A DNA stretch of 43,665 nucleotides from a virus. Its lineage: Duplodnaviria > Caudoviricetes. Of the stretch, positions 16,428 through 38,400 are shown one piece after another. Numbering within the stretch: position 1 is the stretch's first letter; every line of letters starts with the position of its first letter. A model generated the notes under the pieces. That model was not told where the DNA came from. It saw nothing but the letters and a program-made list of their open reading frames with translations, and ran no database searches. The stretch is from positions 1 through 43,665 of IMG/VR virus record IMGVR_UViG_3300044612_000613. The stretch is one strand, 5' to 3'. Both the position numbers and the translations under genes were made by a program.

Positions 16428-16483
16428 GGGAACCCCCGGATGTTGTGGCGCCGGGAACCCCCGGCTTGAGGATAGTGCTACAG

Positions 16484-16502: not shown

Positions 16503-16503
16503 G

Positions 16504-19287: not shown

Positions 19288-19329
19288 GGGGCGCTCCTGC
19301 GCGGTGAGTGTGCGAGCATGGTCGCCATT

Positions 19330-19348
19330 CGTTGCGCCCGCCGCAACC
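19330..19348. promoter_or_regulatory. Operator-like palindrome
   Basis: CGTTGCG-cccgc-CGCAACC in an intergenic gap. Confidence 0.6.
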
Positions 19349-19373
19349 ACGCGCGCAGAACGCACCGTTCTAC

Positions 19374-20125: not shown

Positions 20126-20343
20126 GCTGGTGCACTCGCGTGGTCTCGGCAGGCGGCAATGGCGGCATTGTACGCAGCGGCACGGTCGCCAGGCTCATCG
20201 GCGCAGGGCCAGGCTCCGAGTATCCGCCCGCGCGGAGCGACCGCCATGTAGACGATGCGGCCCTTGCCCTGCCCGGCCTTGTTGATCGTGTAGCTTCCGC
20301 AGTCGCTGGTGACGTGGTGCGCGTCGCGCTTGGTGAAGTTCAT
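20122..20343 (-). CDS. Hypothetical protein
   Basis: MNFTKRDAHH start has an ATGA overlap with the methyltransferase stop. Confidence 0.6.
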   Translation of the reverse strand: MNFTKRDAHHVTSDCGSYTINKAGQGKGRIVYMAVAPRGRILGAWPCADEPGDRAAAYNAAIAACRDHASAPA

Positions 20344-21767
20344 GGGAACAGTGTGAGCTGTGGTTCGGTGACAGGCGGCGGCTCGGGCTTGGGCATCACG
20401 GCGGCGATGCGCGCCCGCGCGATCTCGACGTATTCCGCCTCGCGCTCGATCCCGATGAATCGGAAGCCCTCGAGCACGGCGGCCTTGCCGGTGCTGCCGC
20501 TGCCGGTGAACGGGTCGAGCACCACGCCACCGGGCGGCGCCACCAGCCGGCACAGGTAGCGCATCAGGTCGGTGGGCTTCACCGTGGGGTGCACGTTCTC
20601 GGCGCCGCGGTCGGCCTTGCTCGCCTTCGCGCAGTAGAAGAACCGGGCGGCACTGCCGGTGCTCGCCTCGATCTCGCGCATCCGGTATCCGGCGTGCTCT
20701 CCGTAGACCTCGCGGGCCTTGCTGTGGCCGCCGACCGTGCCTGCCTTGACAGCACCGCTCTTGCTCTCAGGAAAACCAGCCAGCACCTCTTCACTCCCGT
20801 CGTGAATCAGGTTGGCGGGCCAGCGGCCGGCGGTGGTCGTTCCACCCGCACGGCTGCCGGTTGTCGATCCATCAATCGCTCCGGCGTAGGTGTTCGCTCC
20901 CATAGGGCGCCTATCCATTTCGATCAATGGGCGCTCTCCGCCTTCCACCCTGCACCCATCCACATTCAGCGCCCCCGTCCCATGCGCCAGCACGTTCTCG
21001 GCCACGGTGCCCGCCAGCGGCTTCCGGGCGACGGTGATGGGCTCCAGCGCGGGCTTGAGCGCGGTGCCCCAGCCTTGCCACTCGTTGCTGCCGGAGGTGC
21101 CTTGCCCTTTACCTTTGGTCCACTCGTCGCCGGGTGTCTCGCCCTTCGGCTGCGGGGGTTCTTTGACCAACGCCACAACCCAGTCGGGCGGCTCCATGTT
21201 CATGTGCTCGCGCAGTCGCGCCCAAGCCTCAGCGGTTGGGACCATCGCGCGGCGCCCATAGCGCGGCGCGTCCTTGGTCGCCGTGTTCACGATCTCCACT
21301 TCGCCCGTCAGAAACCGCACGGACCCCGTGACCCTGCGCACGGTTTCGGCGTCAAGGCCGGACTGCTCCCGCATCCATGCGCAGAACAGCGCCTCATCGG
21401 GCAGCAGATCAAGGCGCGCGTCAGGCTTGCGCGCGTCGTCCACCGCTTTGGCGACGTTGAGCGACTTCGGGAACCCCGACCCATACACCCACGCGATCAT
21501 GTCCCGAATCTCGAACCCGGCGTCTTCGATCCGTACGGCCATGCGGTGCTGCGTGCGGGTGCCAGCGAACGCCAGCAGGTGCCCGCCGGGCTTCAGCACC
21601 CGAAGGCACTCAGCCCAGATCTCGACGCTAGGCACGTCGTAGTCCCAGCGCTTGCCCATGAACGAAAGCCCATAGGGCGGGTCGGTGACGATGGCATCGA
21701 CAGATTCCGAGGCCATGCCACGAAGCACGGCGAGACAGTCGCCGTTGTGTAGTTCGACAGTACTCAC
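20340..21767 (-). CDS. DNA amino-methyltransferase (N6-A/N4-C, beta class)
   Basis: GDCL, VTDPPY, HPTVKP and VLDPFTGSGSTG motifs in beta order. GTG start at 21767. No cognate restriction enzyme recognised. Confidence 0.92.
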   Translation of the reverse strand: MSTVELHNGDCLAVLRGMASESVDAIVTDPPYGLSFMGKRWDYDVPSVEIWAECLRVLKPGGHLLAFAGTRTQHRMAVRIEDAGFEIRDMIAWVYGSGFPKSLNVAKAVDDARKPDARLDLLPDEALFCAWMREQSGLDAETVRRVTGSVRFLTGEVEIVNTATKDAPRYGRRAMVPTAEAWARLREHMNMEPPDWVVALVKEPPQPKGETPGDEWTKGKGQGTSGSNEWQGWGTALKPALEPITVARKPLAGTVAENVLAHGTGALNVDGCRVEGGERPLIEMDRRPMGANTYAGAIDGSTTGSRAGGTTTAGRWPANLIHDGSEEVLAGFPESKSGAVKAGTVGGHSKAREVYGEHAGYRMREIEASTGSAARFFYCAKASKADRGAENVHPTVKPTDLMRYLCRLVAPPGGVVLDPFTGSGSTGKAAVLEGFRFIGIEREAEYVEIARARIAAVMPKPEPPPVTEPQLTLFP

Positions 21768-21985
21768 GCCCTTTCCTTGTGCAGATGGTTGAACACCCGG
21801 CGCAGCGCGTAGCCGCGCACGAGGCTGATGATGGTGAAAAACACGGTAATGCCGAAGCCGTCGGCGACGGTCGGGCGATGGCCGAACAGGGGCAGCACGA
21901 CGAGCGTCGCGGCCCATGAAATGCCGAACCCGACGGCGGTGCTGACGGTCGTCTCGACGAGCGACTGGAGCTTAGTCTGACTCAT
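21764..21985 (-). CDS. Two-TM conserved phage membrane protein
   Basis: MSQTKLQSLVE...GF...ISLVRGYALRRVFN. Confidence 0.75.
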   Translation of the reverse strand: MSQTKLQSLVETTVSTAVGFGISWAATLVVLPLFGHRPTVADGFGITVFFTIISLVRGYALRRVFNHLHKERA

Positions 21986-22224
21986 GGCACCCCCACTGTG
22001 AGACTCCACGACCCGTCTGGATTAACGGTGCCGCTCACGCTCCACATGCAGCCGGCGTCGGCCTGCCGGCGGAAGGCACCGGCAGCCACCTCGCCCATGT
22101 GCTTCGACAGCGCCTTGATCGCGGTCGCCCTGGCTTCCGCGCCCTCCTCACCATTCAACCGACGGCGCAGGCGTTCAACGTCCGCGTCGATCATCGCCTG
22201 CATCTCACTCAGATTGATGTTCAT
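21982..22224 (-). CDS. Hypothetical protein
   Basis: SD GGAGGAGG. ATGA overlaps at both ends. Confidence 0.65.
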   Translation of the reverse strand: MNINLSEMQAMIDADVERLRRRLNGEEGAEARATAIKALSKHMGEVAAGAFRRQADAGCMWSVSGTVNPDGSWSLTVGVP

Positions 22225-23624
22225 GCCCTCCTCCCTGCCCGCGCCCTGAACAAATGGTTTGCCCAAGCCACCGGGTTTCGGTAGCCCCTACTCGCCCCCA
22301 GCTTGATCAGATCCTCCAGCGTCTGCGCCGCCGCCTGCTCCTTGCGCGCCTCACGCTTCACGCGCGCCACCTCGACCTCGGACAGCGTGCCGGCGACCTC
22401 CTCAATCTGCCGGGCCTTGATCGGAAACGCTGCCCCGCACTCGCGGCACTTGGATGCCGCAGCCGGCGACACGGCGAAGCACGACGGGCACTGGCGGATG
22501 GCGACGTCGTCCTCAGACTTGCCCTTCGACTTCCGCGCCTCGCGCCCGAGCAGCGACCACTCGCGCGGGTCATCCGGCAGGCCATGCCGCGACGAGTTGC
22601 CGACGTGGTCCAGGATCACGGCATGCGGCTTGCCCGGTGCCGTCCGCAAGGCGCGGCCGACTTGCTGCAGGTACAGGCCGAGCGACTGGGTCGGGCGCAG
22701 CAGGATCGCGCCGACGATGCCGGGGACATCGAAGCCTTCCGAGATCACGTCCACGCTGGTCAGTACGTTGATCGCGCCGCGGCCGAAGTCGGACACGATG
22801 CCCTTGCGCAGCGATCGGTCCATGGTGCCGTCGAGCTTCGCCGCCCGGTAGCCCTGCGCACGGAACTGCTCGGCCACATGCTCGGCATGCTCGATCGACA
22901 CGCAGAACGCCACGGCCGGCTGCCCGTCCATGCGCTTGCGGTACTCGCCGACGGCCGACCCGATGATGGCGGGCTTGTCGACCTTTGCCGCCACCTCGCC
23001 CTTGACGAAGTCGCCCATCCTGCTGCGGACCCCAGACAGGTCGAGCTGCTGGGCCGGCGCGAACAGGCGGTACTCGGACAGCGCGCCGAGATCCACAAGC
23101 TCGCGCGTCGTCGGCCCCAGCACCATCTCGTCGAACACCTCGCCCAGTCCCTCGCCCGACAGGCGCTCCGGCGTCGCAGTCACACCGATCAGGCGCATGC
23201 TCGGCAGCTTGGTGCGCCACTCGGCGACCACCCTGCCCCACGTAGACGCGCCGATGCAGTGATGCGCCTCGTCACAGATGACGTAATCCGGCACGGCCAC
23301 GCGGTCCATGCGCCGCGCCAGCGTCTGCACACTGGCGACATGCACGCGGTGACGCCTGTCGTACAGGCGTCCCGCAGCGATGTAGCCGTGCGCCACGTCG
23401 AACCGGGACAGCGTCTCGGAGACCTGGTCGACCAGCTCGTCGCGGTGGACGAGGATGACCACGCGCTTGCCCGCGGCCTGCAGGCGGCTGGTCAGGTAGG
23501 AGAAACAGACGGTCTTGCCGCCGCCGGTGGGGAGCACCAGCAGCGGCGAGTGATAGCCAGCGGAGAACGCGTCGCGCAGCCCTTGGATGGCGGCGTCCTG
23601 GTAGGGGCGAAGGACGACGGCCAT
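22221..23624 (-). CDS. SF2 DEAH helicase with C-terminal zinc ribbon (RadD/YejH-like)
   Basis: LRPYQ, PTGGGKT, DEAHH, TATP, QQVGRALR, CPSC..CREC. Confidence 0.93.
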   Translation of the reverse strand: MAVVLRPYQDAAIQGLRDAFSAGYHSPLLVLPTGGGKTVCFSYLTSRLQAAGKRVVILVHRDELVDQVSETLSRFDVAHGYIAAGRLYDRRHRVHVASVQTLARRMDRVAVPDYVICDEAHHCIGASTWGRVVAEWRTKLPSMRLIGVTATPERLSGEGLGEVFDEMVLGPTTRELVDLGALSEYRLFAPAQQLDLSGVRSRMGDFVKGEVAAKVDKPAIIGSAVGEYRKRMDGQPAVAFCVSIEHAEHVAEQFRAQGYRAAKLDGTMDRSLRKGIVSDFGRGAINVLTSVDVISEGFDVPGIVGAILLRPTQSLGLYLQQVGRALRTAPGKPHAVILDHVGNSSRHGLPDDPREWSLLGREARKSKGKSEDDVAIRQCPSCFAVSPAAASKCRECGAAFPIKARQIEEVAGTLSEVEVARVKREARKEQAAAQTLEDLIKLGASRGYRNPVAWANHLFRARAGRRA

Positions 23625-23625
23625 G

Positions 23626-23937
23626 TCACCGTGCCTCGGCGACGTCGACCCCTTCCTGCGGCTGCCGAGCTTCGATCTCGCGCAGCTGTCCGTTCGCCGT
23701 TCTCAGCGCAGCCTTGAGCGCATCGCCCCAGTCGGCGAGGTCTTCATTGGTGACAGGCCCGTCCTTGAGCAGCGGCTCCGGCACCTGCGCCGTCATCTCA
23801 GGCGGAAGCCGCACGTACACCGGCACCCGGACCTCGACGGCCTCGGGCTTCACGGCTCGGTTACTCGCGCAGGCTGCGAGCGACAGCGTCAGGCACGCGA
23901 GTAGCAGCCCACGCGGCAGCGGATGGATCACGTTCAT
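23626..23937 (-). CDS. o-spanin (Rz1-like lipoprotein)
   Basis: Signal peptide with lipobox LAAC, Pro-rich, overlaps the 3' end of the i-spanin. Confidence 0.8.
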   Translation of the reverse strand: MNVIHPLPRGLLLACLTLSLAACASNRAVKPEAVEVRVPVYVRLPPEMTAQVPEPLLKDGPVTNEDLADWGDALKAALRTANGQLREIEARQPQEGVDVAEAR

Positions 23938-24301
23938 AGATAACCCCTCGGTCGGTGCGACGACGATCCAGCTCCCTTTGCAGCGCGTCGCGTTCGCTGC
24001 GAAGGTCGGCCACGGCTTCCGCGGCTGCTTGCTGGTCCGCGGCTCGCCCCTCAGCGAGTTCACGGTTGACTTCCTGCAGGCGGGCGATGACGTCGACGGC
24101 GGCAGTGTTCGCCTCCTCGAGCTTCGCCACCTGCGCCTTGAGTTCGGAGATCTCCTGCGCAGCCTCGGCTCGGGCGGAATCGCGGCCGGTGTCGTAGGCC
24201 CACCACGCGCCAACGCCGAGCGCGCCAAGCAGCAGCAGCCCGGCCCAGACCTCGGCGGGGATGGCCTTGACGAGCCAGCGCGCGGCGTCGACGACGATCA
24301 C
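23861..24301 (-). CDS. i-spanin (Rz-like)
   Basis: N-terminal TM, coiled coil, C-terminal WA.T.VP.AV motif. Confidence 0.8.
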   Translation of the reverse strand: MIVVDAARWLVKAIPAEVWAGLLLLGALGVGAWWAYDTGRDSARAEAAQEISELKAQVAKLEEANTAAVDVIARLQEVNRELAEGRAADQQAAAEAVADLRSERDALQRELDRRRTDRGVIYERDPSAAAWAATRVPDAVARSLRE

Positions 24302-24633
24302 GGCGCAGCCTGCGGCACTGGGCCGCCGATGGGCGGAACAGGAATCCCGTGCCTGCGCAGCTCGTCCTCGAGGTGCCACACCCGCGAGCGCATGCGCAGG
24401 CCGTCGGTCTCAAGCGCCTGCACGCGTTCCGACAGTCGGGCGACCTCTGCTCGCAGGTTCTCGATGATGTCCTTCTCCGCTTGATAGCCGGCGGCGTCGG
24501 CGCCGTAGCCGTATTCCTCAGCCTGCCGGCGATGGCGGCCAGTCAGCCATGCCAGCGCTCCGGCAATGGCGGCAGCGATGCCCGCGCCGATCGTGCCCCA
24601 CATGCCAAGGTTTCCGCCGGTCTCGTCCATCAC
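24298..24633 (-). CDS. Single-TM coiled-coil protein, holin candidate
   Basis: One TM plus coiled coil. Lies between endolysin and spanins. Confidence 0.55.
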   Translation of the reverse strand: MMDETGGNLGMWGTIGAGIAAAIAGALAWLTGRHRRQAEEYGYGADAAGYQAEKDIIENLRAEVARLSERVQALETDGLRMRSRVWHLEDELRRHGIPVPPIGGPVPQAAP

Positions 24634-25139
24634 GCCTTGCCCTTCACGGTTTCGACGGCGGAATCATACAGCGCCTTCCACGTCTGCGGGTGGGGCTTGC
24701 CCGGTCGCCAGTTGCGGATGTAGCAGGCCCACGCGTGAGCATCGCGGCCGATGGCCGGCAGCGGCGCGGCGTCGGTAAACAGCAGCAGCCGCGCGAAGAT
24801 CGCGGCGAGCACGTCATCCTCGGCGAGCGCGGTCCACACGGCGCGGCTCTCGTTCGGGATGCCGCGCTTGTGGATGATCGCCGCCGCGATGTCGCGGCTG
24901 GCCGGATGGGTCAGCACGCCGGCGACGCCACCCCCGCGCTCGAACTGCCAGAACCCGCGGGCCGGACCGTTGGGCATGCCGGGGCGCGGCGGCATTTGCA
25001 GGCGGTGACGGAATCGCGACTCCTGCAAGCCGATCGCCAGCAGCATGACGCGGGCCTCGTCGGAAGCCATGCGCGCCGGCAGCTCGGCGAAGGCCGGCTC
25101 GACCATGTCGCGCAGTACGAGGTGCAGGTTGACAGTCAT
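24630..25139 (-). CDS. Putative endolysin (lysozyme-like fold)
   Basis: LLAIGLQESR...GPARGFWQFE...YIRNWRPGKP. Upstream of the spanins. ATGA overlap with cro. Confidence 0.75.
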   Translation of the reverse strand: MTVNLHLVLRDMVEPAFAELPARMASDEARVMLLAIGLQESRFRHRLQMPPRPGMPNGPARGFWQFERGGGVAGVLTHPASRDIAAAIIHKRGIPNESRAVWTALAEDDVLAAIFARLLLFTDAAPLPAIGRDAHAWACYIRNWRPGKPHPQTWKALYDSAVETVKGKA

Positions 25140-25378
25140 GCGGCGGCGGCCTCCATGGTTCGGCCGAGGACCAGGTCGTCGGCGGTCAGGACGATCGAGC
25201 GCTCGCGCGCCATGTTGAGCAGCGGCGCGTGATACCTCGAGGGGATCAAGCCGCCGGTGCCCTTGGGCACGGGCTGACCCCAGCGCCAGATAGTCGACCG
25301 GGAGACGCGGAGCGCGCGCTCGAGGTCGGTCGGTCGGAACGTTTCGGTGACCAGTTGGCCGGGCGTGATGCGATTCAT
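25136..25378 (-). CDS. cro: Cro-like HTH regulator
   Basis: LERALRVSRSTIWRW...GLIP. Divergent from the repressor. Confidence 0.8.
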   Translation of the reverse strand: MNRITPGQLVTETFRPTDLERALRVSRSTIWRWGQPVPKGTGGLIPSRYHAPLLNMARERSIVLTADDLVLGRTMEAAAA

Positions 25379-25472
25379 GCGGCGATTGTTGCGCGCACCG
25401 CAACGGGTGTCAAGCGATGCCGGCGCCGCGTCGGATGTTGCGCTAGGTGCGACATAGTGCTAAGGGGTTACT
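25379..25472. promoter_or_regulatory. Immunity region: leftward promoter and 2-3 operators
   Basis: Minus-strand TTGACA (25413-25408)-17 nt-AACAAT. Operators TGTTGCG-cgcac-CGCAACG (25387-25405) and TGTTGCG-ctagg-TGCGACA (25436-25454), plus a degenerate copy at 25415-25433. Confidence 0.8.
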
Positions 25473-26063
25473 ATGATTGACACAGACTGGTTCATCACCC
25501 ACCTAGCAGATCGGAAGTTGTCGCAGCGACGGCTTGCACGCTTCATGGGCGTAGACCCTGCAAGCGTTCACCGACTACTGCAGGGAAAGAGACCAATGCG
25601 ATTTGACGAAGCCGGGCAGCTCGCTGCGCTGCTCGGAGTGACGGTTGACGACGTGCTGCGCCACGCTGGCCTGCCCGTGGGTGTCGGCGGCACGGTGCCC
25701 GTCGTAGGCACGATCGAGGCCGGCGGCGAGGCGCACATCGACTGGGGCGCAGAGCTGGGCCGCGCGCCCGCGCCGCTCGAGATGCCACCGAACACCGTGG
25801 CCGTGAGGATGCGGACGGCCGGGACGCCGTGGGAGCCGATGGACGGCTGGACTCTGTACGCCAGGCCACCGGTCGACGGCGTGCCCGCGGAAGTCGTGGG
25901 CCGCATGGCGCTGGTGCGGCTGGCCGGTAGCGGCACGATCCTGCTGCGGTTCCTGCGGCGAGGCTACACGCGCGGCCGGTACAACCTCGTGGGCTGGCAG
26001 GCGGCGTCGATCGAGGATGCCGCGCTGGATTGGGCGACCGCCGTGGATCACATCGCCACCTGA
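25473..26063 (+). CDS. cI: CI-like repressor (XRE HTH plus S24-like C-terminal domain)
   Basis: LSQRRLARFMGVDPASVHRLLQGKR, VPVVG.I.AG, and a degenerate S24-like C-terminus. Confidence 0.85.
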   Translation: MIDTDWFITHLADRKLSQRRLARFMGVDPASVHRLLQGKRPMRFDEAGQLAALLGVTVDDVLRHAGLPVGVGGTVPVVGTIEAGGEAHIDWGAELGRAPAPLEMPPNTVAVRMRTAGTPWEPMDGWTLYARPPVDGVPAEVVGRMALVRLAGSGTILLRFLRRGYTRGRYNLVGWQAASIEDAALDWATAVDHIAT

Positions 26064-26234
26064 GAGACTGCCCCGGTATCGTCGGGGCCACACGGCACAA
26101 TCACCCCAGCAGGATCGGACCGTAACGTGCCCGCCGCGACGCGGAGAAACCGGGGCTTGTGCTGCGGGTGTATGCCCATGTCGTCGGGCCGGCACCTCCC
26201 GCTGGCCGTCCACCCTCGACCATCCTGCCCGAAG

Positions 26235-26302
26235 TGATGCGGCGAGCGCAACAGGTGTTGACAGCCCGAACGTAACCCCTTAATGTTGCGACCAGCGCAA
26301 CG
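26235..26302 (+). promoter_or_regulatory. Rightward sigma70 promoter flanked by two operators
   Basis: TTGACA (26258-26263)-17 nt-TAATGT (26281-26286). Operators TGATGCG-gcgag-CGCAACA (26235-26253) and TGTTGCG-accag-CGCAACG (26284-26302). Confidence 0.85.
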
Positions 26303-26333
26303 CATCCCGCGATGCGCGCAGCAGGAGAGTCCC

Positions 26334-27263
26334 ATGGATCGTGAATTCATCACCCCCACCGACGAGGCCCACTGGCACGCAATGCGCGCCGCCGACCTCA
26401 CGTCGACCGACGTGGCCGCGCTGTTCGGCCTGAGCCCGTACAAAACCCGGTTCGAACTCTGGCACGAGAAGCGCTCCGGCGAGGTCGTGCGGATCAAAGA
26501 CAACGACCGGATGAAGTGGGGCCGGCGTCTGGAGTCGGCCATCGCCTACGGCATCGCTGAGGACCGCGAATGGTCGGCGACCCCGATGAAGGACTACGGG
26601 CGCATCCCGTCCGAGCGACTGGGCAGCAGCTTCGATTTCCAGTGCTTCGCGCGCCCCAGCAGCGACCACTTCATCCTCGAGATCAAGACCGTCGACGGCC
26701 TCGCCTTCCAGCGCGGCTGGATCATCGAGGACGACTACGTCGAGGCCCCGGCCCACATCGAGCTGCAGGTCCAGCACCAGATGCTCGTCTCGGGCCTGCG
26801 CCGCGCGTACATCGGCTGCCTGATCGGCGGCAACCGCATCGAGGTCCTGGAGCGCGAGGCCGACGACCAAGTCCACGCCGGCATCATCGCCGCCGCCCGC
26901 GACTTCTGGTCCAGCATCTCGGAAGGCCGCGAGCCGTCGCCCGTCATGCCCGACGACGCCGAGGCGGTGATCCGCATGAACCAGCACGCCGAGCCGGGCA
27001 AGTTGATCGACGCCCGCGGTGATGCGGTGATCGCGTCGCTCGTTGCGAGGTACGCCGAGCTGGGCCAGCAGGCCAAGGTCATCAGCGACGAGCGCGACGT
27101 GGTGAAGGCCGAACTGCTGCAGGCCATCGGCGACGCCGAGAAGGTCCTGCTCGACGGCTACAGCGTGAGCGCTGGCGTCGTCGGCCCTGCCGAGGTGGCC
27201 TACACGCGGCCCGGATACCGGAACCTGCGCATCACGGCGAAGAAAGCGAAGGCCGCCGCATGA
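26334..27263 (+). CDS. YqaJ-like (lambda-exo family) exonuclease
   Basis: W...R...TSTDVAALFGLSPY, GRRLE, SFD, LEIKT, QVQHQM. SD AGGAG. Confidence 0.9.
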   Translation: MDREFITPTDEAHWHAMRAADLTSTDVAALFGLSPYKTRFELWHEKRSGEVVRIKDNDRMKWGRRLESAIAYGIAEDREWSATPMKDYGRIPSERLGSSFDFQCFARPSSDHFILEIKTVDGLAFQRGWIIEDDYVEAPAHIELQVQHQMLVSGLRRAYIGCLIGGNRIEVLEREADDQVHAGIIAAARDFWSSISEGREPSPVMPDDAEAVIRMNQHAEPGKLIDARGDAVIASLVARYAELGQQAKVISDERDVVKAELLQAIGDAEKVLLDGYSVSAGVVGPAEVAYTRPGYRNLRITAKKAKAAA

Positions 27264-27454
27264 CCTACTCCCGCCTGATGGAGCAGGCCCACCGCCTCCA
27301 GGCCCAAACCTACCGCGCCTACGCCCTCGCCTACAGCATCGACCCATGGCTGACCGAGGACGAGCGCCGCGAGCAGGTCGATCACTTCACCGCCCTGTCC
27401 ACCACCTACGACGGCCTCGCCGCCGATTACCTCAAGATGGAGATCCCCGCATGA
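27260..27454 (+). CDS. Hypothetical protein
   Basis: ATGA overlaps at both ends. Confidence 0.7.
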   Translation: MTYSRLMEQAHRLQAQTYRAYALAYSIDPWLTEDERREQVDHFTALSTTYDGLAADYLKMEIPA

Positions 27455-28323
27455 GCACCCAGATGACCCCCGTGCAGAGCGTCTGCACCACGATCGCCAG
27501 CCCGCAGTTCAAGGCGAACCTCGAACAAGCCCTGCCGCCGAACGTCAGCATTGACCGCTTCATCCGCACGGCGTTGACCGGCATCCAGCAGAACCCAGCG
27601 GTGTGCGATGCCGACCGCCATTCGCTCTACCTCGCCATCCAGCGGTGTGCCGCCGACGGCCTGCTGCCCGACGGCCGCGAGGCCGCGCTTGCCATCTACG
27701 GCGGGAAAGTGAATTACATGCCGATGGTGCTGGGCATCATCAAACGCCTCGCCACCGCCGGCATCACGATCGACGCGCAGGTGGTCAAGGAACACGACAC
27801 GTTCGAGCAGGAGTTCGGCGACGACGCGCGCATCGTCCACAAGGCCCCGCGCCTCGGCCAGCCGCGCGGCCCGCTGATCGGCGCGTATGCCATCGCCAAG
27901 CTGCCGAACGGCATGGTGATGCGCGAGGTCATGGATAAGGACCAGATCGAGCAGGTTCGCACGTCGAGCCGCAGCGCGAACGCTGGCCCGTGGAAACAGT
28001 GGTACGACGAGATGGCCCGCAAGACCGTGCTGCGCCGCCTGGCCAAGCGCCTGCCGATCATCGACGCCAGCGTGGCCGACACGATCAATGCCGACGACGA
28101 CCTGATGGACTTCGCCGCGGGCAATGCTGGCCCCGGCGACAGCGCGCCGGAACCGGCACAGCCCACCGGCCCGCGCCGCCCGCGTGGCCTGCACGTCGTG
28201 GCCGCTGCAGCCGATCAGGCCGGCGACGTGATCGAGGGCGAAGTCGTGCCCCGCAACGGGCCGGCCGACGACGACCCGAGCCCGGCACCGGCCGGCGACC
28301 CGTCGGGCGACGGAGACTTCTGA
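27451..28323 (+). CDS. recT: RecT-family single-strand annealing protein
   Basis: ALP...DRFIR, GLLPDGREA, GPW..WYDEMARKTVLRRLAKRLP, acidic tail. Confidence 0.92.
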   Translation: MSTQMTPVQSVCTTIASPQFKANLEQALPPNVSIDRFIRTALTGIQQNPAVCDADRHSLYLAIQRCAADGLLPDGREAALAIYGGKVNYMPMVLGIIKRLATAGITIDAQVVKEHDTFEQEFGDDARIVHKAPRLGQPRGPLIGAYAIAKLPNGMVMREVMDKDQIEQVRTSSRSANAGPWKQWYDEMARKTVLRRLAKRLPIIDASVADTINADDDLMDFAAGNAGPGDSAPEPAQPTGPRRPRGLHVVAAAADQAGDVIEGEVVPRNGPADDDPSPAPAGDPSGDGDF

Positions 28324-28568
28324 TGAACGCGACCGGACAGACCTACGAAATCAGGGAGCTTGCGGACTTCGCCAGCGTCCCCGCCGATCGGCGCGACGCG
28401 ATGCTGGCAGACTTCAAGCAGTTCATCGAGTTGCTGGATGCGCAGCGCCCCGTCATCGATCTGGCAAAGGCAATCGGCGGAAATGTTGGGATCACCTTCA
28501 AATGGATCGACGACGGCGACGTCGGCTGCAAGAGCGCATTCGTCACCATGAAGTTCGGGGAGGCATGA
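28323..28568 (+). CDS. Hypothetical protein
   Basis: TGATG overlap. YEI..L.DF..VP.DR...FKWIDDG. Confidence 0.65.
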   Translation: MNATGQTYEIRELADFASVPADRRDAMLADFKQFIELLDAQRPVIDLAKAIGGNVGITFKWIDDGDVGCKSAFVTMKFGEA

Positions 28569-28780
28569 CCATGCCCTCCAAGACCCCGACCAGCATGAAC
28601 CGCACCGAGTACCTGCAGATGCACCGCGAGCGGCGCGAGCTGATCGTTGCGGCCGTCAAGGCCGGCGGCAAGACCTACGACGAGATCGGTGAGCAGTTCG
28701 GCGTGTCTCGCGCGCGCATCTCGCAGATCGCAGCCGCCGCCGGCATCACGCGGAAGCGTGGCGGTGTACCTCAGTCCTGA
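28565..28780 (+). CDS. Small HTH protein (sigma70 region-4-like)
   Basis: KTYDEIGEQFGVSRARISQIA. Confidence 0.75.
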   Translation: MTMPSKTPTSMNRTEYLQMHRERRELIVAAVKAGGKTYDEIGEQFGVSRARISQIAAAAGITRKRGGVPQS

Positions 28781-28964
28781 ACAGCGGCGCCAGTACGAGG
28801 CCCGCAACCGACGCCTGCTCGCCGCCGTGCGCGCGGGCGTCCCTTACCCGCTGATCGCGGAGCGGTTCAGTCTGACCCGCCCCCGCGTCAGCCAGATAGC
28901 AACCAGCGCCGGCATCTACCGGTGCAAGCCAAGGAAGGCACCATGCGATACCAAGAACCCCTAG
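28758..28964 (+). CDS. Second small HTH protein, paralogue of the preceding gene
   Basis: VPYPLIAERFSLTRPRVSQIA. GTG start at 28758 or 28764. Confidence 0.7.
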   Translation: MAVYLSPEQRRQYEARNRRLLAAVRAGVPYPLIAERFSLTRPRVSQIATSAGIYRCKPRKAPCDTKNP

Positions 28965-29218
28965 ACGACGAGCTGCCCGAGTTTGACCAGGCCATCGTGG
29001 GCAGCGTCGTGCGCCTGCACCTGCCCCTCAAGTCGCCGAGCGCGCTGCTGCAGGTGGCCGACATGCTGCGCGGGCTCGCGACCCAATGCGAGCTTGCCGC
29101 CACCGGTCACGGCAACCCGCGGACGCGGATGTTCGAGCTGATGATGTACGCGCGGGAGGTTGACCGCAGGATGAAAAGGGTTAAGGGTCGAGGCAGGCCA
29201 CCGAAGCTAATCAGGTGA
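28943..29218 (+). CDS. Hypothetical protein with C-terminal GRP (AT-hook-like) motif
   Basis: SD AGGAAGG. Ends KGRGRPPK. Confidence 0.65.
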   Translation: MRYQEPLDDELPEFDQAIVGSVVRLHLPLKSPSALLQVADMLRGLATQCELAATGHGNPRTRMFELMMYAREVDRRMKRVKGRGRPPKLIR

Positions 29219-29228
29219 AACAGCCAAA

Positions 29229-29260
29229 GCAGGCGGCACACAATATCTAGTGTCGCCTGC
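29229..29260. terminator. Hairpin between convergent transcription units (possible terminator) containing an NrdR-box-like sequence
   Basis: GCAGGCGGCAC-N10-GTGTCGCCTGC flanked by A-runs. ACACAATATCTAGTGT at 29238-29253. Confidence 0.5.
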
Positions 29261-29263
29261 AAA

Positions 29264-29291
29264 ACCTTCCACCTTATATATTATGCGAATG
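29264..29291 (-). other. dif-like Xer recombination site (candidate attP)
   Basis: Minus strand reads CATTCGCATAA-TATATA-AGGTGGAAGGT. The XerC arm and spacer resemble proteobacterial dif; the XerD arm is degenerate. Confidence 0.72.
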
Positions 29292-29361
29292 GGCTGGCCT
29301 AACACGCCGGATAGATTAACCAGCCCATGCAGATAACCCTATCCGCACAAGCCGGATAATC

Positions 29362-29377
29362 CGACTAGATCTAGTGA
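29362..29377. promoter_or_regulatory. Second NrdR-box-like palindrome
   Basis: CGACTAGATCTAGTGA, with a perfect 12-bp palindromic core ACTAGATCTAGT. Confidence 0.5.
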
Positions 29378-29396
29378 GCCCGTTCGCGCTTCGTTC

Positions 29397-29960
29397 TCAC
29401 GCCCACGCGCGCACGATCATGCGCCAGTTGCCGTTCGTGAGGTTCAGCACCGTGCCCGTCGTCTTGTTCGGCAGGCCGAACACCGTGGCGTTGTTGGCGT
29501 AGCGCACGAAGATCGTCGTCGCGTTCGGGACCAGCACGACGCCGCGGTCAGCCACGGCATCGCCGACCAGCCCCCACTCGACCTCGTCGTTGACGGCGTA
29601 GTTGCCCTCGACCGTCTTGCAGATCAGCACGACGCGGATGATCTTCGGCACCATGCCGAGGCCATGCGTCAGCGACAGCGTGCCGGCGGTAGTGATCGTC
29701 TGCTCGCCTGAGTCGTAGGCGACAGTCAGAATCGGCCGCGCCGATGCGGCGATCTTCGCCGTCGTGATGGCATTGTCTGCCACCTTGGCGGTCGTGACCG
29801 CGCCGTCCTGAATGTCCACCGTTGCGACAGCATTGGCCGCCAGCTCGTCGGTGCCGACCGCGCCTGCCGCGATCTCGTCGGCCGCGACCGAATTGGTGCC
29901 GAGCTGAGTGGCACCGATGGTGCCGTCCGGAATCATCGTGCCGGGAGCTTTGCCGGTCAT
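29397..29960 (-). CDS. Fibre-like virion protein with 10-aa repeats
   Basis: About six (G/N)AVTTAKIAD-type repeats, then a globular C-terminus (THGLG..P...WR...RAW). Confidence 0.7.
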   Translation of the reverse strand: MTGKAPGTMIPDGTIGATQLGTNSVAADEIAAGAVGTDELAANAVATVDIQDGAVTTAKVADNAITTAKIAASARPILTVAYDSGEQTITTAGTLSLTHGLGMVPKIIRVVLICKTVEGNYAVNDEVEWGLVGDAVADRGVVLVPNATTIFVRYANNATVFGLPNKTTGTVLNLTNGNWRMIVRAWA

Positions 29961-29995
29961 AGTTGTGATCTCGGGTTAGTCGAATATCAGCGGGG

Positions 29996-31270
29996 TTAAA
30001 AGACGACCCACGTTTTGGGAGTTAGTGCAACCCAAGGGCCGGCGCTGGCAGCAACATCGTCAACAAACAATGCGCTAGTCCACGTAACAGCGTCGTCCGA
30101 CCACTCGAGCCTAAAACCTGCCGGGCTTCCGCTAATCAAGTTCCAGCTTGGGAAAATCTCGATGCTTTTGACTTCAACGGGGCCCGTTGGCGTCCGAGCG
30201 CCCGCCGCTCCGAAGTCCCAGGCAATCCATTCATTATCGTTAGAGACTGCAATCCATCCTGAGCTTGTGGTGTTCCCATCAAAAGCGTTGTATGGCCTAT
30301 TGGGGGAGTTCACGAACGAGCTTGCAAATGCCGGGGTTTCTGCTGAATTAGGCAGGCACCTATTCACCCCCGCCGCATCAAACAGACGAAGCTCGCTCAA
30401 GCCGTGCTGGGCCGCACTAGTTCGCGTGATCCTGACGCGCCAATACCGATGCGCTCCCGGCCCAGCGGCCGCCGCTACCGTCTGCGACAGCGTCGCCTGA
30501 CACCCTCGCCCGTCGCGCACGCGGATGACGACGGCATAGTTGGTGGAGCCCCCGCCACCTACCGCATACGAATGGTTCCACGACACGTTGTCGGCGTAGA
30601 CCTTGTCGCTTGACCGGCCCTGGGGGTCGCGCGAGCCGGAAACAGCGAGGCGAACCAGAGCGGCACCGGCCGGCGCGGCGGCGGTCACCGTCGACGTCTG
30701 GAACGCCGAGCTGCCGGTGTTGACCACGTTGCCGACGGAAAACGAGATCGGCATGCCAGCCGCGTCTAGCCACTGCAGCACGACCGCGCCGCCACTGAAA
30801 TCCTCGCGCGTTGTGCCCTTGGAGATTCGCGCCGACGCGGTGATCGACGTGCCCGGCGTCACCGGCACGGCTTGCGCGTGAGTGAGCGACGACTGCCCCG
30901 GCCCGTCGTACTTGGCCGACTGCGTGCCGGTCTCAACGAGTGCCGTCGTGTCGATCGTCCAGCGGTTGCCGAGCAGCCAGCTTCCGTCGTCGCCCGTCTC
31001 AAAGCCAAGGTTCGGCAGCGCGCCAGCAGGGGTGCCGGCGGGCCACGCCAGCGTCACCACGCCAGTCGCCTGATTCACAGCCAGCGACCAGCCATCCGGC
31101 AGCGCAGGCGTCGCGCTCACCAGCTCGGCGGTCACGTTGCCGACGCGGTTCGTCACCGAGAACGTGCCGGCGTATGCCTGCCCGGGCGTGTGATTCGCAA
31201 GCGTGCCCGACGTGCCGAGGTTGCAGACCAGCGCCGCCGGCCTGCCGAAGCGAGAGAGTCCCGAGGCCAT
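29996..31270 (-). CDS. Receptor-binding/adhesin protein with CBM-like and discoidin (F5/8 type C)-like domains
   Basis: LPNLGFETG...W CBM-like start. HRYWRVRIT...NAFDG...W...EWIAWDFG...FRLEWSDD.VTWT. TAATG overlap with the fibre gene. Confidence 0.72.
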   Translation of the reverse strand: MASGLSRFGRPAALVCNLGTSGTLANHTPGQAYAGTFSVTNRVGNVTAELVSATPALPDGWSLAVNQATGVVTLAWPAGTPAGALPNLGFETGDDGSWLLGNRWTIDTTALVETGTQSAKYDGPGQSSLTHAQAVPVTPGTSITASARISKGTTREDFSGGAVVLQWLDAAGMPISFSVGNVVNTGSSAFQTSTVTAAAPAGAALVRLAVSGSRDPQGRSSDKVYADNVSWNHSYAVGGGGSTNYAVVIRVRDGRGCQATLSQTVAAAAGPGAHRYWRVRITRTSAAQHGLSELRLFDAAGVNRCLPNSAETPAFASSFVNSPNRPYNAFDGNTTSSGWIAVSNDNEWIAWDFGAAGARTPTGPVEVKSIEIFPSWNLISGSPAGFRLEWSDDAVTWTSALFVDDVAASAGPWVALTPKTWVVF

Positions 31271-32403
31271 TAGGAGGTCGCCATGTCGTTGCCGATGGTC
31301 CAGGTGTTCGTGCTCGGGTCATCGCACACCAAGCTGATCGGCGAGTAGCGCGCGCGCGTGCGCGGGAAGAATCCCGACGGAATCTCGATGGTGACGCCGG
31401 CAGCCGGCGAGACCGTCACCTGCCCCGTGCCTTTCTGCACGATGGTGAAGTAGTCGCCCGACTTCCAATCCAGCGCCGTGTTGCCGTTGTTCGCGCGAAG
31501 CGTCAGCGTGACCGCCGTTGCCGCGGTGCAGAGGATGTGCCCCTGCCGGTAGCCCGCGTCGAGCGTGGCCGTCGTGCCGGCGATGGTGAACACCGGGAGC
31601 TGCGGCGAGACCTGCGACGTCGCCGGGCCAAGGAACGCGCGCAGGATCACCCAGCCCGTCACGCCGTTCGGTGGTGCCGTGCTGAACCGGATGACCGAGT
31701 TGACCGAGTCCGCGCCAACGATGACGTCGTAGTCGTCGTCGGGGTTCTGGGCCACGCCACCGATCGCCACGTCGTAGTAGAGCGCGTCGGAAACGTCAGC
31801 GCCGGAGATGGTGAACTCCGTCGCCGTGCCATTGCCGACGAACTCCCAGAACTTCGGGATGACCACAGCGCCAGGCGGCAGCGTTCCGCCCCCGCCCCCG
31901 CCCCCGCCGCCAGTGCCGGCCTGCCCGACGACCGCGGCGTCCGACTGGTTCACGCCCGTGCCGACGTTGATGATGCGCGCACCCTTCGCGTCCCAGACGA
32001 AGCCGCCACCGGGGCCGGGGATCAGTTGCAGCGAATTGTCGACGGCCCTCGCAAGCTGCTGAATCTGCATGGTCGCCCGGTCGAACGACGTCTCGTGCGT
32101 CCGCGGGTAGAACGAGCCCTGATTCTTGTAGTCCGTCGGCTGCAGGTACGGCAGGATGCGGCGGATGCGGACGCGAACGCCGCTGGCCGGTGCGACCGCC
32201 ATCGTGATGCTGCCGCCGGCCTCAAAGCCCGCGTTCTGCACCGTGTAGTTCGTGTTCTGCACCTGCGGGGTGATGAGCCCCGTCGACGAGATCAGGTCGA
32301 CCACGATGTCGGACGCCAGCAGCGTCGGGAAGGTGAACGCGAACACCGTCGTGCTGCCGTTGGCGGTGTAGATGTTCTCGCTGTTCTGCGTCGCAACCGT
32401 CAT
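31270..32403 (-). CDS. Tail fibre protein with T7 gp17-like N-terminal anchor
   Basis: YTANGSTTVFAFTF...HETSFDRATMQIQQL anchor, poly-Gly hinge, and C-terminal adaptor-like domain. Confidence 0.85.
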   Translation of the reverse strand: MTVATQNSENIYTANGSTTVFAFTFPTLLASDIVVDLISSTGLITPQVQNTNYTVQNAGFEAGGSITMAVAPASGVRVRIRRILPYLQPTDYKNQGSFYPRTHETSFDRATMQIQQLARAVDNSLQLIPGPGGGFVWDAKGARIINVGTGVNQSDAAVVGQAGTGGGGGGGGGTLPPGAVVIPKFWEFVGNGTATEFTISGADVSDALYYDVAIGGVAQNPDDDYDVIVGADSVNSVIRFSTAPPNGVTGWVILRAFLGPATSQVSPQLPVFTIAGTTATLDAGYRQGHILCTAATAVTLTLRANNGNTALDWKSGDYFTIVQKGTGQVTVSPAAGVTIEIPSGFFPRTRARYSPISLVCDDPSTNTWTIGNDMATS

Positions 32404-32433
32404 GGGATGGCTCCGGGGTTCTGGTTCATGGTA

Positions 32434-35400
32434 TCACTCGCGCGGCGGGCCATAGACGGCCATCTTGGCGAACTCGGTCTTGTCCTGCTCGGGGTCGTCA
32501 AGGACGGCCTCGACGGTCTTGGAGGTGATGCGGACCTGAGCGGCAGGCGCACCGACGATCGGCCCAAGGATCGAGAAGATGTCCCGGGTGGCGTCGAAGT
32601 AGTCGACCTCGCCGGTTTCCATGTAGGTCCCGACGTTGTCGCCCATCGACTGGAACGCCCGGCCCATCTGAATGACGGCCTGCGTGGTCGGCGCGGCGCG
32701 CGGGTTGACCGGCTTGTCGGTGATGACCTCCTCGCCGATCGCCGTCAGGTCGCGCAGGTAGGGCAGCGTCATCAGCGGGAACAGGCCGACGTTGACAGCC
32801 AGCCAGCGCGCCCAGTCGCCCGAGCCGATCTCCTCGTCGTCGTCCCCGTCCTCGGGGCCGCGGCCGGCGGCCAGTGCGAAGATCGCCGGGGCGAGGAACA
32901 CCTGGATCATCAGGGTCGACGCACGGGCACCGACGCGCTGGGTCGCGCCCTCGCCCCGAGCCATGGCGTACAGGCGGCCGAAGATGACGAACATCGGCCC
33001 CATGAACTGCCGGGCCTGCTTGAACTGGGAGTCGCGCTCGAACGTCGAGACGTCCTTCCGGCCGCTGGCAGTCTGGGTCTGGCGCACGGCCTTGTCGGCC
33101 GATAGCACCGCCTGGGCCTCGGACTCCTTGGCATCAAGCGCCTGCTGGTAGCGGCCCCACCACAGCGCCCGCGTGACCTCGGCATCGGCGGCCCGGTGCA
33201 GCGCCATCATCATGCGGCGGTAGGCCGGCCCCCAGCCGCGCTCGCCGGCAAGCCGGGCAAGCTCCTGCTGGAACTGGAAGTCGGTCTCGTTCAGGCGCTG
33301 GGCCATGAACCCCGACTTCGCCACGATGGCCTCGGTGGTCTTGGTGCGGCTGGTCTCGAGCGCCCACCAGCCGCGCATCAGCGCCTTGACGCCGACGCGG
33401 TCGAGGCCCTGAATCGTCGCCGACGTCAGGTTCCCCAGCGCGATGTCGGGGCGGATGGCCAGCGCGGCGACCGACGTGTTGGTCAGCAGGGTGTCGAGCG
33501 CACGCGCCCAGCGGGCAGCCACGCGCCCAGCGACGGCCGACGACGCCGACACGGCATAGGACAGCGAGCCGCGCAGGTTGTCGTAGCCCTCGCGCCCGAC
33601 GCGCAGGATCAGTTGCTCCTTGATCTCGTTGTCGGACAGGATGCGGTTGACGTCGCGCACGGCCTCGCGGTGCGACAGGTCAGTGATGACGTGGTCCATG
33701 TGCCGCGACATGACCGACGCGAAATCGAGCTGCAGCGGGGACTCGAACGACTCGACGCGCGCCTTCTGGTAGCCCTTGGGCGTGAACGCCTTGGTGAAGC
33801 CCGCGCCCATCATCACGCGCATCGCGTCCGCGCCGTCCTGCGTCTCGCCCACCGTCGACCGGTTGGCGTCGTAGACCAGCGGCCAGTAGCCGCCGCGGAG
33901 CGTGACGTTCTTGCCGTCCTTGCTGACGACGTTCGCCTCCTGCGGGTCCACCTTCTCCGGCGGCAGGCCAGACATGCGCCGCTGCAGGTTCACGATGTCG
34001 GGCCACAGCGAGTCGACGGCGTCCCACATGCCCTGCACGAACTGCAGCTCGTCGGCGCGCAGCTCGGACAGGATCTGCTTGACCTCGCCGGGGTTGAGCT
34101 TGACGCGCCGGCTGCCGTCGACGATGCCGCCGTCCATCAGGCGCTGCAGGTTCGACGCGTTGCCGGTGTTCAGCGCGATGCCGAGCAGCGTCGCGCGGCT
34201 GACCGTGAGCTTTCCGCCGAGGATCGTGACCTTGTCCTGCAGGGTCTTGAACGCTTCCGGCGTCTCGGCGCGCAGGGCCTTGAGCTTGGTGCCCAGCGCC
34301 TTGCGATACTCGACGGCCTTGTTCTCGGCGTCCTGCATCACCGTCCAGACGTAGTCGTGCCACGGCCCGGTCTCGCCACCGTCCAGCGCCTCGATGACGT
34401 TCTCCGGCCGGTTGAGGTTCGCCAGCGCACCGACGACGCCGCGGCGCGCAGCCTCGAGGTCCCCGACGTCACGACGCGACACCTCCCCGCCGACCGTCTC
34501 GGGCAGCGAGTCCAGCATGCGGCCGAGCAGGTCCGTGCGGGCCTCGTCCCACTCGCGGCCGTCGCGGGCCGCGGTCAGCTTGTTCTTGATCTTGGCCAGG
34601 TGCTGGATGTTCTTCAACGCATCCATGGCAGCGTCGATCTCGGCAACCTTCGCCTCGCGCCAGTTCGTGACGCGCTCGGACTCGACGCGGGCGATCAGCT
34701 CCTCGGACACCGCCGTGATCTCGCCGGCGTCCTGCTGCGCCTCGACCCACGACCGCAGCGACTTCTTGCGCTCGAGGTCCTTGGTCGACATGCGGCGCAG
34801 GTCGAACGACGCGAGGATCTGGTTGACCTTGTCGAGATAGCCCTCCCACCCAGCGCGCGCCAGACGCTCCTGCGAGGGCTTCTTGGCCAGACGCAGGCCC
34901 TCGTCGCGGAAAGCCTCGGCGCGCTCCTTGGCGTCCGTCTCCGCGCGATAGTGAAGGCGAGCCATCAGCGAATTGCGGCGGGCCTTCGCGGCTTCCAGCT
35001 TGTCGCCCTTGCCCAGCGCGATCGCTGCCTTGCGTGCCTCCCGCATCTCGACCTGCTTGTGCCGGTTCGGGGCGAGGTCCTTGACCGGCTTCTCGGAGAC
35101 CAGTCGCGCCACGTAATCCCTGAGCGGCGGCAGCGCGAGCTTGCGGCCACCGAACAGCGCGTTGATCTCGCGGACCATGACCTCCTCGGCGGCGTCGGAG
35201 TGCAGCGCACGGGTGACGCGCGCATCCAGCTCGCCGTCGAGCATCGGGTCGGGGTTGCGCTCCTGCCAGCGGCGCAGAGCCTCGGCCTCGATGGCGTCCT
35301 TCTTGCTCGGCTTGGACGCGATGGCGTTCAGCATGTCCAGCGTGGACTTGAAGCCCAGCACCGACGCGGCCATGTCGGGATGCACGCCGCCCTCATTGGT

Positions 35401-38400
35401 GTGCATGCCGCTCATGTTCTTCTTGACCCACTCCTTGCCCTGCATGTCGGTCAGGGCGCGAGTGTCGAGCTTAAACGCGCGCTCGCCCTCGGGAAGCGGC
35501 GAGCCGTCGGGCATCGTGCCGCGGCGCAGGACGAAGATCGCACGCCACGCCGGGTCGTCGTTCAAGTCCTTCTCGACCTGTGCGCGCAGCTCCTTCATTT
35601 CCTCGGACTTCGCACGATTGGCCTCGCGCTTGGCGTAGGCGAACTGGACCGCGCCCTCCTGCTCGATGGCGGACTGCCGGGCAGCCTGCACCGCGAGCTG
35701 GTAGCGGCGGAACTCGTCGTCGGACATGTCGCCCTTCTCGGCTTCCGACAGCAGCGGCTGCATGCCGAGGTCCTGGCGAACGGCGTCGATCTCCTCGTCG
35801 GTCGCCAGCATGCGGTCGAAGTAGGCGCGCACCTCGGGCGTCAGCTCGGCGTTCTGCAGCGCGTTCTTGAACAGTGAGTAGATGTTGCCGAGCCACGTCT
35901 TGAACGACTGGAACGCACGCTTGAGGCGCGGGCTCGGGGCCTTGCCTTCCTCGAGGTACGCCTCGAACGACTCGGCGAACTTCTCGTGTGCCTTGCGAGC
36001 GCGCTCGTTGTGCGCGTCGTCGCCCTTAATCATGGCGAGCTGGTCGAGGCTGTCGACGCCAAGCCACTCCAGCAGCCGCGCGTCGTCGTCGACAATGCGC
36101 TGCTGGTCTGCCGTGCGATCCGCCTCGGGAATGGCCGCGACCTGCGCGTTCACCTGCCGGCGCAGCTCGAGGAACATGTGCGCCGATTCGTGCAGGAACG
36201 TCGACTTGTCGGCCTTGTTCCCCAGCGTGATGATGTAGCGATCGAACCCGCCCGGGTAGCCCGGCACGATGTTGATGCTGCCGCGCTTGGTGTCGTCGAG
36301 GGTTTGGGAGAGCGTCGACGGGTCGCCTAGGTCGAACGATCCGTCGTTGCCGATGGCTGATTTGACAGCCTTTTCGTTAAAGACAGCGTAAACATCAGAG
36401 ATGGTTTTTGATTCCGAATCTGGTGTCGGAGGGTCTAAAAGGTTCTTGAAGATTACGCCATCAAATCCTTGCCGCTTAGCCTCAAGTGTCACCTCGTCAG
36501 TTGTTGCAACGTCGTTGCGCCACCTGCCGGGAAGGCCGTCAGTTGGTATGTCGTCGTACCGCCTTCCACCAGCGTCAACGACCATCGGGTCTCGCATCCT
36601 GATGTATACAGGTTGCACGTTTGGAATATTGCCAAGCTGCCTCCCTCGAGACTCCATTGCGTACTGGGATGCAAGCTCCGTAGACGAAGTAAAGAATAAA
36701 GCCCCGCCGAAAGTAAACCCGCTGGTCGGGCTTATGTATTCGGAAAAATCCTCGCCCGTCCCGTGATACACCACCAACGGCCGCCCCTGCTCGTCGACGA
36801 CCTGCGACTCCCCGAACCACCGCTTGAACTCCGGCGTCTGCGTCTGCTCGGCGGGCTGGGATTGATAGAACGTCCGCACATCCGAGATCGCGCCCTCGTC
36901 CCAGATGACGTAGTTGCGGCTGCCGTCGCCAGCGCCTCGGCTCGTCCCTTCGAGGTAGCGCAGGCCGGGGATGCCGGCGGCGAGTAGGGCCTCGGAGGCG
37001 GCGCGCGAGTACCCGAGGGAGAGATACAAATCTTTCCCGGTCTGCGGCGCCCCATCGCCACCAGAAAGCACGTAGTCAACGCTGGCTTGGCCATACCAAC
37101 GAGCAATCACATCACGCAGCCCCTGCTTGACCTTCTCCGGCTGCTCACTCAGCGGCGCGTCCCAGTCTAGCAGATCGCCGTCGTCGGGGATCTCGGCGGC
37201 GTAGAGCTGGCCCTGCCCCGGCTTCTCCGTGAAGTCCTTTTTCGACTCGGCTTGATTCAGGTACTCAAGCGCCTCGCGCCAGACGGCCAGCGTCTGCTGC
37301 TCGCCCTTGTCGGCCTTGCGCTTCTCGCTCCACGTCTCGGCGTCCTTGATCCAGCCGGCCACGTCCTTGCGAGCCTTCGCCAGCGTGGTCGACTTGACGA
37401 TGCGCGCGGCGAAGTAGCCGCCAGTTCCGGGCTGGAACTCTTGCCCACGGAAGAACCGGCGCGGCGACTGCTCAGCTCCGCCGCTCAGCTTCTCCCGATA
37501 CCACTCCGCAATCTCCCGCTTGCCGGCAAAGTAGAGCCCCCACCCGTAAGCCTGCGCGCCCTCGCCCGTGCCGATGGCCTGGAGCTTGAACCCCTCGCGC
37601 TCGATGCCGCGATGCGGGCTGCCGTGAAACACCGACTGAAACATCATCCGCGGGTCCTTGCGCGACCACGTCCCGCGGTTCTCCGTCGACTTGACCTGCG
37701 TCGGCTCGAACGCGACCCACGCGTTCTGCTCGGGAATCCACACGCCGTCGAAACCCTGCGACTGCAGCATCATGCGAGTGAGCGCGGCCTCGGCCGCGTC
37801 CTCGAACGACTGCGCCTCGGCCAGCGTCATCGTCTTGGGGTTCTGGATCGAGAGGTAGACGTCCAGCACCACAGCGTCGGCGGGCACGTAGTTCGACGCC
37901 TTCTCGGCGTAGGACTCAGCGCCAGCGCGGTCGGGCGTGAAGAAAAACCCCAGCCCGCTGCTCGCGTGCCCGGTGGCCGTGGCCAGCAGGCGGCGATCGA
38001 ACGCGGCGAACTCCTCGCCCGTGCCGTGGTAGACGACCATCGGCGTGCCGTCGGGGTTCGCCACCTTGGACTGCTCGAACCAGTCCTTGAATGCCTGCGA
38101 GTCGGTCGGCGCGGCCTGCTCGAACTCGACGCCCTCCTCGCCCGGCGCGCGATCCATGCCCAGCGCGCGGCGCACCGCGGCGTTGTCCATCTCCGCAAGC
38201 TGCTCGCGGCCGATGCCGATCTCCTCGAGCATGCGGCCCAGTTCGTTCGTCGACTCGTTGAACGCAGCGCGGTCGACGTTGAAGCCTTCCGGCGAGAACG
38301 CCGGCGTCTCGCCGAGGTCGCCGATCAGCAGGTCGATGACCGTGTTGATGTCAGCGCCGTCGGCGTCGTACTCGTTCGCGTTCTCCTTGGCCGTGCGCTG

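Follow-up and report, generated by a model that had tools for sequence, protein, structure and literature searches.

The TLC-phi satellite of Vibrio cholerae, whose integration is driven by XafT, carries no integrase. According to the descriptions in PMC6744903, PMC9226527 and PMC5357621, its attP joins a good XerC arm and spacer to a divergent XerD arm with G at position 5, and a small gene lies beside it. XafT is defined by the domain DUF3653 (PMC6744903), and XafT-driven integration needs either that G at position 5 of the D arm or a T at position 1 (PMC9226527). The 43,665-nucleotide stretch of viral DNA that we analysed, here called the window, has no detectable integrase, and it resembles TLC-phi in the layout of its site, in the G at position 5 of the D arm and in the small gene next to the site. 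It differs in that TLC is a small satellite, whereas the window is a 43-kb self-contained podophage with cI/cro. The product of orf91, the gene next to the window site, is unlike XafT in that it is not a DUF3653 protein and has no fused HTH. Integration has been shown for TLC and is predicted for the window.

Three other systems described in the literature invite comparison. The gonococcal genetic island (57 kb; PMC5357621) is large and, like the window, combines an intact XerC arm with a divergent XerD arm; its weak D arm shields it from FtsK-driven excision. However, it is a T4SS island, FtsK-driven, in which only the outer D-arm bases differ, whereas the window site has lost the inner three. 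Legionella phage LME-1 is, like the window, a short-tailed dsDNA phage, and it integrates at dif via host Xer (PMC9765430, PMC12407071). By its published description, LME-1 relies on a single recombinase, XerL, and an identical 22-bp dif copy, while the window site belongs to the XerCD type, which employs two recombinases, and its D arm is degenerate. The dif-type double jelly-roll prophages of Vibrio (PMC12715192) are comparable as dsDNA elements with full or one-armed dif mimics, a terminal Xaf gene next to attP and integrase-bearing sister groups, but they are tailless and small, and their helper belongs to the XafT family. A second activator, XafV, is reported to be only 18% identical to XafT (10.64898/2026.06.12.731946).

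In its virion and packaging module (capsids 52-68% identical), RecET genes and cI/cro layout, the window resembles epsilon15/phiV10/BPP-1/Ab31-like podophages. Phages of this kind typically carry a tyrosine integrase with attP at the equivalent convergence. Given that the window has no detectable integrase and instead a half-degenerate copy of dif beside orf91, its phage likely integrates by means of host XerC and XerD. We therefore consider it probable that the window is an XerCD-exploiting temperate podophage and that its 28-bp site is the attP for integration at host dif. The novelty of a tailed phage that exploits Xer, implied in an earlier note on this DNA, was overstated: LME-1 is short-tailed (PMC12407071) and is a published IMEX of the single recombinase XerL at dif (PMC9765430), so a tailed IMEX is already in print. 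A literature search that covered mainly the main texts of open papers listed no XerCD-using tailed phage whose site is of the TLC type, and PMC9865509 and 10.1101/633727 yielded no tailed-phage precedent. What is new here is the TLC-type site in a tailed phage, the co-variation of cI, orf91 and the site, and orf91 as a candidate activator family unrelated to XafT. Because lifestyle prediction leans on integrases, tailed phages that use XerCD would be scored as lytic. If our reading is correct, a dif mimic together with orf91 would mark a hidden class of temperate phages.

The podophage genome and its dif-like site

The window is the complete, circularly permuted genome of a podophage from a lake (1..43665; CheckV completeness 100) with an end overlap of 182 bp and a unit length of 43,483 bp. 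Its virion genes (capsid, connector, tail tube, internal virion proteins and terminase) are of the epsilon15/BPP-1/Ab31 kind, the capsid being 68% identical to that of Pseudomonas phage Ab31. Together with cI and a cro-like gene, they bear out the earlier assignment to temperate podoviruses. As for the cI/cro switch itself, the cI-like repressor with its XRE HTH (25473..26063, plus strand) is annotated by PHROG and Pfam scans, while the divergent cro-like gene (25136..25378, minus strand), which is conserved in kin, is assigned from its position only. Downstream on the plus strand lie a RecE/YqaJ exonuclease (26283-27263) and a RecT annealase (27451-28323), both recognised by PHROG/Pfam, and two small, mutually similar HTH genes of uncertain start (28502..28964). 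Directly after these comes orf91 (28943..29218, plus strand), the final gene of the rightward early arm, which encodes a 91-aa protein of no known family. Tail-fibre genes (29397..32403, minus strand) converge on the site from the other side, and the last of them is variable among close kin. This last gene (29397-29960) is exchanged relative to L007, L008 and runs X3, X5 and X11, in phages otherwise 95-100% identical, with a breakpoint at about 29400 that adjoins the att region. Close kin also differ in the LPD22/ART-PolyVal module of the internal virion protein, which in the window is a 2699-aa protein (32434-40533) that contains LPD22 and a pair of ART-PolyVal (ADP-ribosyltransferase) domains.

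The earlier note had recognised no tyrosine or serine integrase, transposase or ParA/B, and this was upheld by an HMM check in which six-frame searches with PF00589, PF00239, PF07508 and PF13614 returned no match. PHROG (58 ORFs) and Pfam (54 ORFs) scans likewise revealed no integrase, transposase, Par protein or plasmid Rep among the ORFs of the window; ParB and transposase families were covered by these ORF scans and not by the six-frame searches. PF12375 (DUF3653, the XafT domain) had no match in six frames. Several ORFs at 16-20 kb carry no annotation, and the absence of an integrase accordingly means that none is detectable by known families.

The 28-mer quoted in the earlier note is present exactly at 29264..29291 (read on the minus strand). 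As claimed, it lies where the two transcription arms meet, within a gap of 178 bp that is bounded by the stop codons of the last rightward ORF (29218) and the last tail-fibre ORF (29397). The site, a likely attP from its sequence and its conservation in relatives, has the 11-6-11 layout of dif. An intact XerC arm (29281-29291) is followed by a 6-bp dif-type spacer (29275-29280) and a degenerate XerD arm (29264-29274) that retains T4, G5 and A8 of the dif D arm. The arms are thus of the TLC/GGI type; the earlier note had pointed out that a TLC-type attP has a degenerate XerD arm. Against the dif of P. aeruginosa, the C arm agrees at 10/11 positions, the spacer at 5/6 and the D arm at 4/11 (Table 1 of PMC2731167, which also confirms the Pseudomonas sequence given in the earlier note). 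The D arm is 6/11 identical to both the Agrobacterium and Bradyrhizobium arms printed there, with TGGAA in common, and judged by sequence this remnant would fit an alphaproteobacterial dif best. Positions 29275-29289 are 14/15 identical to the att core of a Xanthomonas inovirus (10.1101/2023.12.30.573655).

With up to one mismatch allowed, the XerC-arm core plus spacer occurs once in the window and in none of 100 shuffles, and the exact site with three D-arm bases has no match in IMG/VR, a count that possibly leaves out the genome itself. The 11-bp XerC arm recurs exactly in one other place, the primase ORF (14050-14060, plus strand), where it lacks a dif-like spacer and is probably a coding coincidence; because of this recurrence, the C arm alone is weak evidence. 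Could the whole motif then resemble dif by chance, and instead serve orf91 or the HTH proteins as an operator or terminator, or belong to another recombinase's site? The copy in the primase gene speaks for such an origin, but the 11-6-11 layout and a possible match at 16 of 17 positions to printed dif arms and spacers (PMC2731167) speak against it, and we judge it very unlikely. An 11-bp inverted repeat with a 10-nt loop (29229..29260), which separates the stop of orf91 from the XerD arm, is likely a terminator; it is compensated in L007 and unscored by the terminator scan.

In the mechanism that we propose, the circularised genome would recombine with host dif through XerC/XerD in the manner of TLC. 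To judge from the biology of TLC-phi and the gonococcal island, XerC would bind the intact arm and XerD would bind the degenerate arm poorly. With so weak a D arm, the prophage would be protected from excision by FtsK, but a helper encoded by the phage would be needed. Orf91, adjoining the XerD arm, may promote the reaction as a functional analogue of XafT, not a homologue; binding to the AT-rich site is predicted for its AT-hook-like tail. If crossover took place in the spacer, the tail-fibre side would regain a functional dif, and the orf91 side would be left with a weak hybrid. We also considered a CTX-type attP, in which two inverted dif-like sites fold back on each other as single-stranded DNA. 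The C arm can pair with 29320-29336 in the window and L007, but this pairing is not kept in L006, L010 and L023, and the candidate was rejected.

Orf91 and the conservation of the site

The earlier note overlooked orf91, whose presence and absence vary together with those of the site. A word search yields 22 homologues, and with HMMER the family comprises 91 clusters at 50% identity; a scan that started from a distant subfamily was empty. The protein belongs to no Pfam or PHROG family and has no match in named phages, plasmids or the ESM Atlas. Its AlphaFold model has three helices (mean pLDDT 78), with no fold match at E<=0.001 in PDB or BFVD; the best BFVD rows are uncultured Caudovirales (E 0.06-0.7). 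The C terminus carries an AT-hook-like GRGRP motif, and 9 of 21 family members score, below threshold, against the AT-hook family. Membership in DUF3653, the XafT family, was tried and rejected, as 0/21 members match.

From this analysis, orf91 is a plausible candidate for an Xer accessory or activation factor and the best candidate for the phage helper. Such a role is plausible since XafV is itself so divergent from XafT, and since xafT is the terminal gene beside attP in the dif-type double jelly-roll prophages. A broader proposal is possible, though doubtful: that orf91 founds a new family of Xer activation/directionality factors, unrelated to XafT. Paired with the half-degenerate dif mimic, it would then make up a portable unit of 0.5 kb that takes the place of an integrase in several lineages of tailed phages and promotes their integration at proteobacterial dif independently of FtsK. 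If true, a new family of XerD activators would open a direct way to study how Xer catalysis can be turned on when FtsK is not involved.

We compared seven contigs whose orf91 homologues are of close or medium similarity (L001, L006, L007, L008, L009, L010 and L023). Five of them (L006, L007, L008, L010 and L023) have the dif-like site in the same position and orientation, so that the conservation in relatives on which the earlier note had let its reading depend is observed, and it extends to distant kin. While L007 and L008 are near-identical phages, L006, L010 and L023 are distant kin with little flank similarity. In all sites the elements run from the tail-fibre end through C arm, spacer and D arm to the orf91 end; in L023 (site at 3245-3272) the module closes the opposite arm with the order of elements unchanged. 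No blastn match connects the gaps of the window, L006/L010 and L023, and a single element of 29 bp, on the XerC side, is common to L006 and L010. Counting the identical sites of the window and L008 as one, D-arm position 5 is G in 5/5 distinct sites and the first D-arm base is T in none. An intact XerC arm and spacer with a degenerate XerD arm bearing G5 is found in all five, in keeping with the TLC-type rule given in PMC9226527, and the conserved G5 is a further point against chance likeness. A shuffle test of the dif-like sites gave 26, 15, 9, 48 and 60 of 5000, values that are partly circular since the motif was defined from the same sites, and among which those of the window and L007 are not independent.

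In the remaining two contigs the site is not seen. L009 ends short of where it would appear, and L001, which retains cI, is missing the equivalent of window positions 29103-29833 at a short microhomology. At independent junctions in L001 (6710-6718) and L016 (~9020) the att region is missing and the last tail-fibre gene is cut short; these are either deletions or assembly artefacts. In L006 an HNH endonuclease (5888-6361) is inserted between the dif-like site and orf91.

Relatives without cI and relatives with integrases

A complete 42.6-kb close relative, G002 (L002), aligns with the window in blocks of 75-92% nucleotide identity. Its cI is cleanly deleted, orf91 is absent, the convergence gap is 41 bp, and there is neither a dif-pattern match nor a tyrosine integrase. 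L016 is likewise without cI, orf91 and the site, and has the truncation junction described above. L014 and L015 are without orf91 and the site, in comparisons of DNA that excludes the cI region. The loss of the site in relatives that lost cI ties the site to lysogeny, and these cI-less, site-less relatives show the origin of virulent derivatives. The deletion in G002 (L002:6409-6414) leaves cro and the last cI codons, and makes this phage a natural derivative of the clear-plaque type.

Alternatively, the site could bind Xer proteins for the lytic cycle, by resolving circles or titrating XerC/FtsK, or it could be a decaying relic of lysogeny. Many kin live without integrase and site (G002, DC33 and ctEw122, the last two with no site at their convergence), and the junctions in L001 and L016 that remove the region would suit either version. 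Against both stand the loss of the site together with cI, the retention of the C arm across distant kin and the absence of site variants from the contigs of eight sequencing runs, and we regard this explanation as quite unlikely compared with a site used for integration. The record of Limnohabitans phage DC33 (L011; PQ492659.1) assigns it to Inoviridae, but its capsid and layout are those of a podophage.

A tyrosine integrase is present in 9 of 24 cI-family kin in IMG/VR, and orf91 in 0 of those nine. Of the 13 near-complete cI kin, seven lack both a tyrosine integrase and orf91 and do not match the dif pattern either (a pattern that also missed the L023 site), so that cI without an integrase does not imply the use of dif. 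Provirus G016, with no PF00589 match, was dropped as a candidate as it has no dif at its ends. Complete Bcep22-like genomes of 61-62 kb (G021-G025 and G027, that is L035-L039 and L041) have a cI homologue and no tyrosine integrase, orf91 or dif-pattern match.

The search for integrated copies, and dif-like sites on unrelated contigs

Two word-limited scans of species-representative GTDB genomes, with orf91 and RecT patterns, found no related prophage. In contigs from 8 of the 21 listed sequencing runs, one of them possibly the source of the window, the site is bridged intact in 8/8; these contigs contain no attL or attR joint at the site, and those listed have no loose end there. No variant inside the site is listed in the eight runs, and the flanks vary in three; the check used contigs only, and contigs drop rare forms. 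Among the orf91-family entries listed, the longest contig is 45,989 bp, and one homologue, WP_308847564.1, lies on a 44.3-kb contig labelled Luteibacter sp. The earlier proposal of lysogeny at host dif via XerCD therefore stands as regards the conserved site, its loss with cI and its TLC/GGI-type arms, while the integrated prophage or junction that would complete it was not found in these searches.

The same data bear on the idea that the lysogen is an extrachromosomal circle whose cer/psi-like XerCD site resolves plasmid dimers, with 105-140 bp of XerC-side DNA as accessory sequence and orf91 as accessory protein. An integrated copy is missing from the genome scans and the eight runs, the listed orf91-family contigs (the Luteibacter-labelled one included) never exceed one phage length, L006 and L010 have their common 29-bp element on the XerC side, and the phage encodes its own primase-helicase. 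However, all data are metagenomic, and phage-length contigs are thus expected from virions. Plasmid XerCD sites generally keep a good D arm. By contrast, a strongly degenerate D arm with an intact C arm is the signature of TLC/GGI integration (PMC5357621), and neither ParA (PF13614, six frames) nor any Par protein or plasmid Rep (ORF scans) was detected in the window. A plasmid-like lysogen is in our view unlikely, and we continue to favour integration at dif.

A 17-base pattern built from the window site, and blind to orf91, was scanned across IMG/VR and found 58 loci on 57 contigs. The orf91 HMM identified five ORFs in the 597 kb of these contigs, all ending 159-171 bp from the site. The five contigs are marine, low in GC and unrelated to the window, and their proteins form two groups. 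The two of them that were examined in detail, L051 and L096, have the orf91 homologue on the C-arm side, the site inside an ORF of 119-123 codons and a serine recombinase two genes upstream of the homologue, an arrangement that lends something to the operator or other-recombinase explanation. Their gene neighbourhoods (L051:6159-9116; L096:5897-10059) hold the serine recombinase, an HTH protein, the orf91 homologue, the small ORF containing the site and RecE, and in L096 also a RecT-like gene.

A tyrosine integrase (PF00589) was found in 2 of 50 pattern-scan records tested, with seven left out. Many of the viral contigs in L050-L107 have 11-6-11 dif-like sites with XerD arms of the TGGAA type, and they possibly represent several further groups of tailed phages that use Xer. 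In L052, L053, L061, L077, L079, L095 and L105 the dif-like sites adjoin terminase genes. L101 contains a rolling-circle element of 6.4 kb that is flanked by two dif-like sites in direct orientation, both with the window's spacer; the D arm of one site is complete, and that of the other agrees with the window's at 7/11 positions. We infer that this may be an integrated element whose attP has a window-like arm, and a near-identical arm at a dif-flanked element is difficult to reconcile with a chance motif. The wider region (L101:1-13249) holds two related small rolling-circle elements with a microvirus-like Rep, which are oppositely oriented. Dif-like sites lie at 6585 and 13024, and the whole resembles a tandem array at a dif of the alphaproteobacterial type.
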